This document shows, in pieces, positions 188-7,688 of a stretch of 31,638 nucleotides of DNA. How positions within the stretch are numbered: the first letter of the stretch is position 1; each line of letters starts with the position of its first letter. A model generated the notes under the pieces. That model was not told the origin of the DNA and ran no database searches. It was given only the letters and a program-made list of their open reading frames with translations. Position numbers and translations under genes: made by a program. Location of the stretch: the NCBI GenBank assembly GCA_964420755.1, contig CAYQUY010000001.1, positions 1-31,638 of the forward strand, in the 5' to 3' direction. The DNA is from an uncultured Anaerolineaceae bacterium (GTDB lineage Bacteria; Chloroflexota; Anaerolineae; Anaerolineales; E44-bin32).

Positions 188-982
188 TCAGCTGGGTCGA
201 TTGCGCGCCCGGTGCCACAGGACCAGTGCTCCGAAAAGCAACGCCCCCATGAGAAGCGCCTGAACACAGACGAGTTCACTGAAGCTCGCCGCCTCTCTGA
301 GGGGAGCAGGCAGCGAGCTCAGGGGCTCTCCGTGGCCGATCGTCCACCCATAGATGTAGCTCCCCAGCGAGTACAGCAGCAACACGACGGGAAGGAACCG
401 CAGCGCGGGGTGAATCGGAGCGAGGCAGTCTCGGTAGTACTGCCGCAGCGAAACGCGGTCGTTTGGCGGAAGCACGACCAAGAGTGCAATTGCCGTGAGG
501 ACAAAGAACACCGTGGCGAAGGGGAAGAAGTAGGAGGCAGTGACTAGTGAGGCCGCGTGGATGGACAGGAGAGCGATGAAACCCAGAAACAGGACAACAG
601 CTACCGGCCTGGAGAGGGCCCTTGCCGCTCGGTCAATCAACCGGAATACCAGTGGATCATGCGCAGGCTCGCGGACAATTTGCGATCGGAGTTCGGCCGG
701 CACCCGCTCCTCCGCAAGCAAAGCGACCGGCGATTCGTAGAAGCCTGTGGGAAGGCGATGCTCTTGCTTGCAGCCCGGGCATTCCCAGCGAGAGGGTCGC
801 TTTGACAAGTTCTTCACGAAATCTCCGCCCATTCCGCAGTTGGGGCACCAGACAGAAGACGACAGGTGATGGCATACGTCGCACTCAAGGAGATATGCGT
901 CTTCAACGGTAGGGACCGCGAAGTAGCGCTGTCGGTCACACTTGTCGCACCATTCCGGGATCAGTATCAGGTCCTGCTGCAT
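188..982 (-). CDS. Double zinc-ribbon / multi-pass membrane hypothetical protein (cassette cargo)
   Basis: Four CxxC pairs (CDKC, CDVC, CPNC, CPGC) in the first ~75 aa, then about 4-5 hydrophobic segments. ATG at 982 preferred over the track's GTG at 1000; it lies 29 nt after the decayed R' box at 1012-1018. Confidence 0.75.
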   Translation of the reverse strand: MQQDLILIPEWCDKCDRQRYFAVPTVEDAYLLECDVCHHLSSSVWCPNCGMGGDFVKNLSKRPSRWECPGCKQEHRLPTGFYESPVALLAEERVPAELRSQIVREPAHDPLVFRLIDRAARALSRPVAVVLFLGFIALLSIHAASLVTASYFFPFATVFFVLTAIALLVVLPPNDRVSLRQYYRDCLAPIHPALRFLPVVLLLYSLGSYIYGWTIGHGEPLSSLPAPLREAASFSELVCVQALLMGALLFGALVLWHRARNRPS

Positions 983-1011
983 TCCAGAGACCACCCCCAC
1001 TCTGCGCTTCC

Positions 1012-1118
1012 GCCCAAGGGTATCGAGCTTCGCGAAGCGGCCTGGCCGGGCCAGGGCTAGTATCGCGCGAAAGCCAAAACGCGAGGATTGCTAGGTCGGC
1101 TCCAGTGGATCCCTAGGC
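1012..1118 (-). mobile_element. Decayed attC site (site D)
   Basis: Minus strand GCCTAGG-GATCC-ACTGGAGC-CGACCT...AAGC-TCGATACC-CTTGGGC. Same 7/5/8 and 8-nt/R' geometry as 5644-5744, with a shared CTGGAGCCGACCT and a similar CGCGA(A/T)ACT...GGCCAGGC segment. Core triplets are mutated (AAC>AGG, GTT>CTT). Confidence 0.75.
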
Positions 1119-1150
1119 CTCCCTGTAGGACCTGGGGGGCAACCCGGCAA

Positions 1151-1178
1151 TTGACGTGGGGTGGAATTGGTGTATTAT
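1151..1178 (+). promoter_or_regulatory. Sigma70-type promoter for the small RNA
   Basis: TTGACG (1151-1156)-N16-TATTAT (1173-1178); the first stem base G1185 is 7 nt downstream of the -10 box. Confidence 0.75.
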
Positions 1179-1184
1179 GTGATT

Positions 1185-1259
1185 GCAGGTTGCGACCGCG
1201 GGCTGTGATCCGCGGAGTGCATCTGCCCCAGCGGGCTCCGGCAACGGAGCCCGTTGTTT
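1185..1259 (+). ncRNA. Structured ~75-nt small RNA convergent on the DUF3800 gene
   Basis: Hairpin 1: GCAG 1185-88/CUGC 1223-26, UGC 1191-93/GCA 1219-21, CCGCGG 1196-1201/1210-15 with an 8-nt loop. Hairpin 2: perfect 9-bp CGGGCUCCG-GCAA-CGGAGCCCG with a GNRA loop, then UUGUUU. Bounded by a promoter and a terminator. Confidence 0.7.
1232..1259 (+). terminator. Rho-independent terminator ending the small RNA
   Basis: 9-bp GC stem followed by TTGTTT on the + strand only (the minus side continues CTGGGG); it ends at the DUF3800 stop codon (1259-1261). Confidence 0.7.
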
Positions 1260-5744: not shown

Positions 5745-6470
5745 GCCCGAGCGATCCGACTTGGTGCCTTTGGATCCGGCCAGAGACCAGAAGAGTCCCT
5801 TCACGTACGCCTCCCCCTTGTCCCTTGTACGGAGGAAGAAGGCAATGCTCGCCGCAAGCTGCGTTGCTGGCAGGAGCCAGAAAGCAGGGCTGAGGTTGTT
5901 AGGGGTGAGGGGCCTGGCGACAGTCGCGAAAGCGCCAGCGAAGAGGACAAGGGCGAGGTTCCTATACAGGGAATAGAAGACGTTCTGTGTGTGCGCCTTT
6001 ACGGCGAGACCCTCGTCTTGAGTGACTGCGTCCGCGACCCGATAGATGGCGTGCGAGAGAGCCAGGGTGGTCTTGGGCGCGGAATGTGCGCGAGGAGTGT
6101 CGTTGGAGAGCGGGGCTAGTGCCGCCCGGGCGAAACCGAGTCTGTTGGCCGCAGCGGCAACAAACAGACTGTGGCCGGCGGAAGTGAGGCGGCCGAAGGA
6201 CTCGACGAGGAAGATCTCCGAGAACAAGTGTCTGTGCCAGAACGTGAGGCGGAGAAGAGGTTCTACTGTGATCTTGGAGAGGAACTGGACCAGATTGCCT
6301 ACGACCAAGGCGATAGAGACATATACGATGGGTCCAAGGATTGGGCTTGAGAAGAGGGCACTCTGGCTGGCATAAACCCCAGGGAAGAGCACTGAGATGC
6401 CCCAGAGTGCGACAATGCCGGGGATGAGGTTTGCGAGCGTGTCGAAGTAGGAGAGCTTGTCCATGGGCAT
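5739..6470 (-). CDS. Multi-pass membrane protein (putative effector), translationally coupled to the MBL hydrolase
   Basis: About 4 hydrophobic segments, in two pairs around a soluble loop; N-terminal YFDTLANLIPG; ATG abuts the upstream TAG (TAG-ATG at 6473-6468). Confidence 0.75.
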   Translation of the reverse strand: MPMDKLSYFDTLANLIPGIVALWGISVLFPGVYASQSALFSSPILGPIVYVSIALVVGNLVQFLSKITVEPLLRLTFWHRHLFSEIFLVESFGRLTSAGHSLFVAAAANRLGFARAALAPLSNDTPRAHSAPKTTLALSHAIYRVADAVTQDEGLAVKAHTQNVFYSLYRNLALVLFAGAFATVARPLTPNNLSPAFWLLPATQLAASIAFFLRTRDKGEAYVKGLFWSLAGSKGTKSDRSGA

Positions 6471-7289
6471 CTAGAGGCCTGTTGAAAGTGACCAGCCTCC
6501 ATCCTCCTTAAGTGTCAGCCGCATCGTGCCCTTTTCTTGTGTCGTGAACGGCTTGTTGCCTTGCGTCGATCCGGAGGAGTACTTCTCGTAGAGCTCCAGC
6601 GCCTTCTTATCTGGCAGCCCGAAGTCGTTAGGGCCAACCGACACAAGCGTCATTGCTGGGGCGATAGCGGAGATGTGGGCGGTGTAGTACTGCTTGGTGT
6701 CGGCGGGGTCGTCGAAGAAGGTGATGGATCCGTGATGCGCGGCGAGCAGAATCGACGAGCTCAGGGAGTCCTTGTCGTAGAAGGTGAGGATCTTCTCCTT
6801 CCAGGGGCGGTAATCAGTGTCTCCGGCAAGCATCGCAGAGGAGCCCGCATATTCAATCTTGAGAACTAGACTCTGCGGGTTTGGGTCCGAGTAGTCTGAC
6901 CAAGCCGAGTTGAGGCATCTGAGTTTCGCGTCCCCGTACGTCCAGAACTTCCTAGCCTCAATGTCCTTGCTGCCCACGGTGCGGCGGAGGTCCATGTAGT
7001 CGCGGTATTCGGGCGAGTCGGTGGTCGTGCCAGGTACTCCTGGGTCCCAAATGGTCTTGATGGGGTGAGCTCCATGAAGGATCTTGATCCCCCTCATGTG
7101 GTCGGCGTCGCGGTGGGAATTGATGAAGACGTCTATTGAAGAGCCTCGGCCCAGGACCGCCTTCGCGTAGTCCATGACTCGTTGCCTGTTGTCGGACGTT
7201 ATGTTGCAGTCGCAGACCAATTTGGTGCCTTCTGGCATGAGCACTATGGTCATGTTGCCGATGCCGACGTCGACGAAATGGATTTCCAT
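6471..7289 (-). CDS. ComEC/Rec2-type MBL-fold metallo-hydrolase
   Basis: MEIHFVDVG.G, SHRDADHMRG, SLVLKIEY, MLAGD, AHHGS and VSVG motifs; GGGGAGG RBS before ATG 7289; no ComEC membrane domain. Confidence 0.85.
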   Translation of the reverse strand: MEIHFVDVGIGNMTIVLMPEGTKLVCDCNITSDNRQRVMDYAKAVLGRGSSIDVFINSHRDADHMRGIKILHGAHPIKTIWDPGVPGTTTDSPEYRDYMDLRRTVGSKDIEARKFWTYGDAKLRCLNSAWSDYSDPNPQSLVLKIEYAGSSAMLAGDTDYRPWKEKILTFYDKDSLSSSILLAAHHGSITFFDDPADTKQYYTAHISAIAPAMTLVSVGPNDFGLPDKKALELYEKYSSGSTQGNKPFTTQEKGTMRLTLKEDGGWSLSTGL

Positions 7290-7395
7290 GCTGTCCTCCC
7301 CTGTGTGGAGCCCTGCAATGCCTGAGAACTGCGAGGACACTTAACTAGTGATTATTCGGACGCAACTCCCTAGATCCCCCTGCCGGGATGCCATG

Positions 7396-7462
7396 CAGTA
7401 ACGCCCGGGGGCTCGGATGTGGCAGCAGAGTGGGAGGGATGTGGGAGGAATGTGGGAACGAT
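7396..7462 (-). mobile_element. Array boundary: attI-like site or right half of an attC, with 11-bp phased repeats (site C)
   Basis: Minus strand ...CCGAGC-CCCCGGGC-GTTACTG (7402-7396) has the same GAGC-8nt-GTT geometry as site B but no R''/L'' arm. It is preceded by GTGGGAGGGAT / GTGGGAGGAAT / GTGGGAACGAT (7430-7462) and degenerate units at 7419-7429 and 7408-7418. Alternative core GTTAAGT at 7345-7339. Confidence 0.5.
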
Positions 7463-7497
7463 GCTGGAGCGGTGTGATCCCCCTTGGGCACGCATTC

Positions 7498-7527
7498 ATT
7501 ATAGGTCTTAAGTGAGGCCCTCCGCAA
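7498..7527 (-). promoter_or_regulatory. Pc-like promoter reading into the cassette array
   Basis: TTGCGG (7527-7522)-N18-TATAAT (7503-7498); an imperfect inverted repeat cgca(a)caacg-cgcaac-cgttgtgcg (7523-7547) overlaps the -35. Confidence 0.6.
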
Positions 7528-7688
7528 CAACGCGCAACCGTTGTGCGTATTCGATATAGATAAGCTGCCGACCGCGCATCTTACTCTCCAGCATCGCCTT
7601 CGGCCGCCACTCGCCAGGCGCCACCCAGCCAAGCACACCCGCGGCGTACCCCGCCAGCCTGTACACCCCGTCATGCTGCGGAGGCCGC

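Follow-up and report, generated by a model that had tools for sequence, protein, structure and literature searches.

An array of integron cassettes without an integrase, part of it fossilised, very probably occupies the left side of the window, the 31,638-nucleotide stretch of DNA analysed here. Arrays of this kind are known as attC clusters that lack an integron integrase (CALINs). The window is contig C1 (31.6 kb) of a metagenome-assembled genome (MAG) of 2.67 Mb in 379 contigs, 81.65% complete and here called G000; the host is an uncultured Anaerolineae bacterium and the source material is freshwater metagenomes. Six genes lie between 188 and 7340, all on the minus strand and in the same orientation, and four attC sites in different states of preservation separate the five cassettes that they form (Table 1). 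By the published definition a CALIN has at least two attC sites and no integron integrase (Cury et al., 2016; PMC4889954). The array is classed as one because it has the sites at 5644-5744, 4172-4355 and 1012-1118 together with a relic at 2109-2306, clustered in the sense of at least two attC within about 4 kb of each other, and because integrase is absent from C1 and from the adjoining contig C53. The original prediction, made from the sequence alone, had proposed six co-oriented minus-strand genes and a CALIN in a probable Chloroflexota genome. The gene calls bear out the first, covariance matches at 5644-5744 and 4172-4355 sustain the second, and the guess at the host agrees with a kynureninase of the window that is 71-75% identical to proteins named 'Anaerolineae bacterium'.

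Reference attC Sites and Covariance Models

The models used to recognise attC come from relatives that have an integrase. Integron integrases scoring above the curated cut-off of TIGR02249 are found in 16 of 41 related genomes, and the DNA upstream of intI in three of these (G010, G020 and G027) is a textbook cassette array. The repeats beside intI read GCCTAAC-5nt-GCTGGAGCCGACC...GGCGGCTCAGC-8nt-GTTAGGC, i.e. they have the R''-5-L''...L'-8-R' geometry. Model R1 was built from 12 attC sites of G010 and G020 that lie beside true integrases and holds no window sequence; it was restricted to these two genomes because MAFFT misaligned attC sites of very different lengths. In the 12 training sites 95% of the cells in the R and L stems are paired and eight pairs show compensatory changes, a level of pairing that no shuffle or slid register approached. 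Model R2 was built from 23 non-window sites, adding attC from genus relatives and from other contigs of G000, and was run over the window and C53 with filters off. R1 also recognises sites on other G000 contigs and in two genus relatives, and it gives 19 matches of at least 19 bits within 20 kb in G010.

The attC cluster in the window is not due to chance. Run over the whole genome (2.67 Mb), R2 gives scores of 18 bits or more at only about eight loci. Three of these fall on a single strand within this 5-kb stretch, so the clustering is far above chance.

The Four attC Sites

The site at 5644-5744 is intact. It scores 45.2 bits with R1 (E 5e-10), which is comparable to the cross-genus matches of this model in G019 and G027, and 55.7 bits with R2 (E 1e-12). 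Its DNA fold reaches -37.6 kcal/mol (z -6.7 against shuffles), and its architecture is near-identical to that of a G020 attC (L024:2725-2824). It was also the only site to stand out in a home-made scan for R''/R' boxes and duplex energy, which otherwise returned noise in this GC-rich DNA. The longer site at 4172-4355 is matched by R2 at exactly these ends (22.2 bits, E 0.001), has 6 of 22 pairs non-canonical, and has long attC homologs in G003, in G001 and on contig C237 of G000 itself. The attC body at 4172-4210 recurs in other metagenome contigs, whose sequence departs from the window at 4172-4176, beside the predicted crossover. One apparent joint, in X4, was rejected, its sides of 21 nt not being credible; in public runs the window is present solely as fragmentary contigs at 3-6x. 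The sites 5644-5744 and 4172-4355 both have mutually complementary boxes of the form RYYYAAC/GTTRRRY. As had been predicted, two genes end with a TAA stop inside R'' (5739-5741 and 4350-4352), and genes start 28 nt (gene start 5615) and 50 nt (gene start 4121) after an R' box.

The remaining two of the four sites, 1012-1118 and 2109-2306, have lost the AAC/GTT triplets and depart from this box form. The decayed site predicted at 1012-1118 is matched by R2 with 21.7 bits (E 0.0013) and is a direct repeat of 5644-5744 (76-86% identity over 41 and 21 nt). Its boxes still pair, the outer change being compensatory, though both conserved triplets are lost. The other decayed site had been placed at 2219-2320. 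A decayed attC does lie there, but it spans about 2109-2306, and the R'' claimed at 2219 is an internal segment. It aligns over its whole length with long-class attC sites: 2161-2289 has homologs among the long attC (about 150-190 nt) of G003, G001 and C237, with R1 scores of 31-45 bits for these, and the long-class attC of genus relatives aligned with this fourth spacer score 31-36 bits with R1. R2 gives a partial match only (12.3 bits, 2195-2290), and the R' relic stands 47 nt before the start of the DUF3800 gene. A boundary site suggested near 7400 did not hold up, as neither R1 nor R2 found an attC-like site there. Rfam at its gathering threshold returned nothing in the window.

REP-like Repeats in the Spacers

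Two spacers also contain repeats of another kind. Short repeats lie at 2295-2342, 2358-2387 and 2400-2439 in the spacer between the ATPase and DUF3800 genes, and a similar one lies at 4290-4318. Dozens of near-identical copies are spread over many contigs of G002, and one is found in front of a tRNA in G000 (C7:22177-22206). Parts of 2295-2440 and 4290-4318 are dispersed repeats resembling repetitive extragenic palindromic (REP) elements, not attC. The REP-like hairpin family is genus-wide, has the cores ACACCTGCCCAGACCGCAGGTACTGGGTC and GGCGGTGTGGCGCGCAGCGCCAGTGCAAG, and inserts into the attC spacers of the window. An N-terminal domain shared between the ATPase and a long DUF3800 open reading frame (ORF) was considered and rejected, the DNA similarity between them being attC and REP sequence.

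The Search for an Integrase

Neither TIGR02249 nor PF00589 matches anything on C1 or on C53 (11.3 kb), and the predicted lack of a tyrosine recombinase extends to this neighbour. A search for intI elsewhere in the genome, which had been proposed, yields a truncated remnant and no intact gene. The sole trace of intI in G000 lies at the end of contig C318 (3084-3407; locus L007), covers TIGR02249 positions 56-131 with 86 bits, loses homology after position 131 and runs into a convergent 804-aa gene. This 804-aa gene carries a DnaA_N-like C-terminal domain. Contig C156 encodes an ordinary Xer-like recombinase that lacks the segment from model position 181 to 233. The genus has three other genomes; in none of them does an intI exceed the cut-off, and attC sites are carried by G003, G002 and G001. 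A complete integron has intI, attI and the cassette promoter Pc by its first cassette; the array has an attI-core-like motif at 7339-7356 and a TATAAT only.

G000 carries several small CALINs but no intact integrase in its assembly. Further two-site attC clusters lie on C237 (1945-2074 and 891-1129) and C69 (3067-3151 and 3660-3864), and solo attC sites on C4 (20285-20384), C49 (8316-8445) and C356 (1954-2047). One further cluster sits just downstream of hisS and has a MazE-like cassette.

Layout and Boundaries of the Array

The genes, sites and boundaries of the array are summarized in Table 1. The cassettes measure 1.1-2.1 kb. GC content is 0.58-0.62 within the array vs 0.66-0.68 just past 7500, in agreement with the lower GC that had been noted from spot counts.

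Table 1. Features of the cassette array, in coordinates of the window.
Feature	Positions	Strand	Remarks
Intact attC, 101 nt	5644-5744	minus	R'' GCGTAAC, 5-nt spacer, L'' with two extrahelical bases, L', 8-nt spacer, R' GTTAGGC
Long-class attC, 184 nt	4172-4355	minus	R'' ACCTAAC, R' GTTGGGC, REP-like insertion at about 4290-4318, weakened L stem
Decayed long-class attC	about 2109-2306	minus	R'' lost, R' relic GTCAGGC at 2109-2115
Fossil attC	1012-1118	minus	R'' GCCTAGG, R' CTTGGGC; AAC changed to AGG, GTT to CTT
MBL (metallo-beta-lactamase-fold) hydrolase, cassette 1 gene 1	6471-7289	minus	272 aa, start corrected
Membrane partner, cassette 1 gene 2	5739-6470	minus	243 aa, abuts MBL stop codon
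ApeA-like HEPN protein, cassette 2	4350-5615	minus	421 aa, RSAHFH motif
Sll1717-family P-loop ATPase, cassette 3	2463-4121	minus	552 aa, extra N-terminal domain
DUF3800 protein, cassette 4	1259-2062	minus	267 aa, GTG start at 2062 behind GAGGAGG
Zn-ribbon plus transmembrane protein, cassette 5	188-1000	minus	270 aa
Tandem REP-like copies	2316-2355 and 2400-2439		upstream of decayed attC 2109-2306
Distal array end	25-187		conserved flank (stop of C53 URO-D-family gene) begins at about 25
Candidate attI-type junction AATAATCACTA/GTTAAGT	7339-7356	minus	50 nt upstream of MBL ATG
Promoter-like TTGCGG-N18-TATAAT reading into array	7498-7527	minus	read from sequence; TATAAT at 7498-7503

Both flanks of the array are conserved within the genus. 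The first 55 bases of C1 are an exact overlap with the last 55 of C53, so that C53 adjoins the window on the left, and the URO-D-family gene (Pfam) on the plus strand of C53 stops 6 nt before the window start. In G003, contig C166 is 85-91% identical to this left flank up to about window position 25 and is then divergent, and the synteny of contig C37 with C53 reaches a LuxR-type regulator only before it differs. No recognisable attC was found at the distal end (25-187), and R2 found no attC in the G003 version of the locus. On the right, the same contig continues unbroken through a 5'-nucleotidase gene, with 24 kb in which there is no recombinase.

The proximal end may keep traces of the recombination platform. 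The junction at 7339-7356 resembles the attI core TAATCACTGTTAGGC beside intI in the relative G020, as well as cores of the form TAATA..GTTAG beside intI in G022 and G029. The similarity was noticed post hoc, and it is suggestive of an attI-type junction. When the proximal boundary (7289-7700) was compared by BLAST with all loci and with the genome, there were no matches. The promoter-like element at 7498-7527 is possibly a Pc equivalent; its -35 hexamer fits the consensus at 3 of 6 positions only, and it is unlisted by a consensus promoter scan that returned one site in 8 kb, below the shuffled counts. Between the array boundary and the 5'-nucleotidase gene, a 52-codon ORF (7508-7666, minus strand) has a protein-like composition and no Pfam match, and a 115-aa ORF overlapping its frame looks non-coding.

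The spacer from the DUF3800 stop to the fossil attC (1125-1258) has a strong plus-strand fold (z -4.4) and contains the only sigma-70-like match in the 8 kb (TTGACG-16-TATTAT, 1151-1178, plus strand). It also holds a GC hairpin followed by a T-rich tail, and it may encode an antisense small RNA.

The cargo is strain-specific accessory DNA. When the locus was compared across relatives, as had been proposed, the MBL, HEPN-like, ATPase and DUF3800 genes, the four tested, were found in 0 of 40 genomes, 3 of the same genus included.

The ApeA-like HEPN Protein

The array had been predicted to carry defence-like cargo, and the HEPN part of that claim stands best. The 421-aa protein of cassette 2 has 117 unannotated homologs (33-53% identity), of which the few named ones belong to Betaproteobacteria, Gemmatimonadota and Nitrospirota. 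Its RSAHFH motif, in which R349 and H354 are invariant in 30 homologs, provides the HEPN Rx4-6H signature in a C-terminal helical domain. A confident AlphaFold2 model (pLDDT 89) has this helical domain, and Foldseek matches the model over its full length to Apea-like HEPN clusters (E 4.9e-21, TM 0.61/0.55) at about 11-16% identity in the structural alignments. Foldseek gave no match to the PDB, and the PADLOC ApeA and Pfam Apea-like HEPN sequence models matched none of the 30 family members. There is good support that the protein, as modelled, folds like ApeA-type HEPN proteins, and it is the best-supported defence candidate of the array.

ApeA is an infection-activated HEPN anticodon nuclease (bioRxiv 10.64898/2026.01.26.701840). 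The 421-aa protein resembles ApeA in having a beta-rich N-terminal region followed by a helical C-terminal HEPN domain that contains Rx4H; unlike ApeA, its family has no sequence-model match, and the likeness is structural only. By analogy, the protein would act as an infection-activated RNase.

Homologs of the 421-aa protein are themselves found in cassettes. One in an unrelated European Nucleotide Archive contig of about 96 kb (L053) is a cassette in a canonical array, beside Kiwa and HigB cassettes. The region concerned (4200-11100) comes from a low-GC (47%) organism, and its HEPN-like, KwaA/KwaB (Kiwa) and HigB cassettes are each bounded by clear attC. Another homolog (L051) is preceded by an attC, with a second attC further on, past an IS3 insertion and two more genes.

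Other Cargo

The MBL protein of cassette 1 is of the ComEC type and matches Pfam Lactamase_B (1.5e-6), PADLOC PDC-M48B (6e-9) and, under its cut-off, NCBIfam 6A-MBL (7.8e-13). Its 693 homologs (55-71% identity) come from several phyla, the named ones from Verrucomicrobia. In two unrelated contigs, an MBL homolog is followed directly downstream by a homolog of the membrane partner (38-39% identity, E 1e-57), and the sequences indicate that the two genes form a conserved two-gene module. The partner itself has weak matches to PDC-M48A (7e-4) and to the Csx27 N-terminus; the two genes, whose matches to components B and A of PDC-M48, a PADLOC candidate system, are both weak, are adjacent here. In three metagenome contigs (L065, L067 and L068) MBL homologs have as neighbours ThiF/E2/JAB genes of 6A-MBL type, a Schlafen-AlbA gene or another MBL gene; such neighbourhoods are defence-island-like and have no attC sites. 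R2 was also run around MBL homologs in four other contigs and gave no attC.

The ATPase of cassette 3 is a clear member of the Sll1717 family (NCBIfam NF047389, 254 bits vs a cut-off of 75, residues 109-562) with a partial PADLOC PDC-M28C match (1.4e-8). The DUF3800 protein matches Pfam PF12686 (3.9e-8) and nothing in PADLOC, and the Zn-ribbon/transmembrane protein matches neither Pfam nor PADLOC. Evidence for defence was not found for the last two; the predicted defence-like cargo is supported in part only.

Proposed History and Function

The array is very probably a remnant or offshoot of the chromosomal integron type that is common in this Anaerolineae family. Its five cassettes may have been captured singly as circles by IntI recombination at the G/TT of attI or attC. 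The array is now probably largely frozen, because the integrase is absent beside it and none is intact in the assembled genome, and its decay can be seen in the lost triplets of two of four attC sites and the invasion of the spacers by REP-like repeats. The ApeA-like cassette alone would be excisable in principle by an integrase supplied in trans, because it is the only cassette between two sites with intact R boxes. For at least two cassettes, the ApeA-like HEPN gene and the MBL module with its membrane partner, a role in phage defence or in some other conflict is most likely; a defence function of the cargo is plausible, with good support for the HEPN protein only.

Several points weigh against an integrase-less array with defence cargo. 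One attC only is strongly significant, and the 22-bit matches are close to the 19.1 bits that R2 gives to a 48-nt hairpin at 30129-30176 (minus strand), a probable false positive without AAC/GTT that marks the noise floor. R1 and R2 are lineage-specific and their E-values are rough. The cassettes exceed typical cassette size, the last cassette has no attC after its end, and the proximal junction at 7339-7356 is only suggestive. Because the MAG, in 379 contigs, is 82% complete, there could be an intact intI that was not assembled. On the side of the cargo, no cassette protein matches a validated defence hidden Markov model, Pfam and PADLOC are empty for the HEPN family, and PDC-M48 and PDC-M28 are candidate systems, not validated ones.

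The points on the cargo also count for the explanation that the array is real and its genes are miscellaneous accessory genes without a role in phage defence, which comes only a little short of an even chance. No tested function is assigned to the DUF3800 and Zn-ribbon proteins or to the Sll1717 ATPase, and integron cassettes are mostly of unknown function according to the literature. The ApeA-like fold with its invariant Rx4H motif speaks for defence instead, as do the HEPN-like homolog adjoining Kiwa and HigB cassettes, the MBL homologs beside E1/JAB and Schlafen-AlbA genes, and the matches of both pair members to PDC-M48A/B.

The array could also lack its integrase only in the assembly, being a complete integron whose intI lies elsewhere (at the C318 locus or on an unassembled contig) after rearrangement or MAG fragmentation and whose cassettes are still shuffled in trans. 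This is unlikely. An intI fragment is present in the bin, attC sites occur on at least five other contigs of this incomplete and fragmented genome, and half of all CALINs are in genomes that encode IntI (Cury et al., 2016; PMC4889954). However, the C318 intI is truncated after model position 131, no intI above the cut-off is found in the three other genomes of the genus, and the array ends proximally within an unbroken contig that goes on through the 5'-nucleotidase gene and 24 recombinase-free kb; in addition, two of four sites have lost AAC/GTT. That the intergenic hairpins are terminators or repeats of the REP or miniature inverted-repeat transposable element type, in an ordinary genomic island with no tie to integrons, is very improbable: REP-like repeats do occupy parts of two spacers, with their dozens of copies in G002 and one by the C7 tRNA, and the crude motif-plus-duplex scan is noisy in GC-rich DNA, but the sites fit models from repeats flanking true intI, both in the R''/R' boxes and in extrahelical bases and spacer lengths; they also have stop codons within R'' and are of a type that flanks different genes elsewhere.

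Comparison with Known Systems and Significance

The CALIN reading agrees with what has been described for such clusters, which have at least two close attC with no intI nearby, few cassettes, heterogeneous attC and cassettes with no homologs in databases; in 83% of CALINs the attC sites number fewer than six (Cury et al., 2016; PMC4889954). The window differs from them in having two of four sites degraded with REP-like invasion, and in keeping a possible orphan attI-like junction and promoter at the proximal end. With the sedentary chromosomal integrons of G010, G020 and G027 it shares the attC sequence family, the 5/8-nt spacers, the extrahelical positions and the orientation of genes relative to attC. 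Those integrons start from an intact intI gene (about 450-490 bits) and contain many attC that are nearly identical, whereas the window has no integrase and its sites are few, dissimilar and partly dead. Anti-phage integron cassettes are likewise compact single-cassette systems, HEPN-only proteins included, that are borne by integrons or CALINs (Darracq et al., 2024, bioRxiv 10.1101/2024.07.02.601686; Kieffer et al., bioRxiv 10.1101/2024.07.02.601719). Those were assayed in Vibrio and E. coli, whereas the cargo described here is known from sequence in an uncultured Chloroflexota host.

Integrons in Chloroflexi, CALINs and defence cassettes in integrons have each been published already, and the window is a further example that leaves current understanding unchanged. 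With it, a CALIN is documented for an uncultured Anaerolineae lineage from freshwater, in a family where integrons are common (intI in 16 of the 41 sampled relatives) and a genus where an intact integrase was not found. Two portable, unannotated candidate defence modules are indicated. Tentatively, and at rather less than an even chance, the 421-aa HEPN family may represent a single-gene nuclease of abortive infection that is not yet described and moves from phylum to phylum as an integron cassette, with the MBL and membrane pair as a second cassette-borne defence module. If so, the array with its dead attC sites would show cassettes becoming fixed chromosomal genes once the integrase is lost. 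One array displays the stages of attC decay, from intact through repeat-invaded and loss of the 5' box to mutation of both triplets, and this series agrees with the published view of CALINs as an intermediate step from gene capture to stabilisation.

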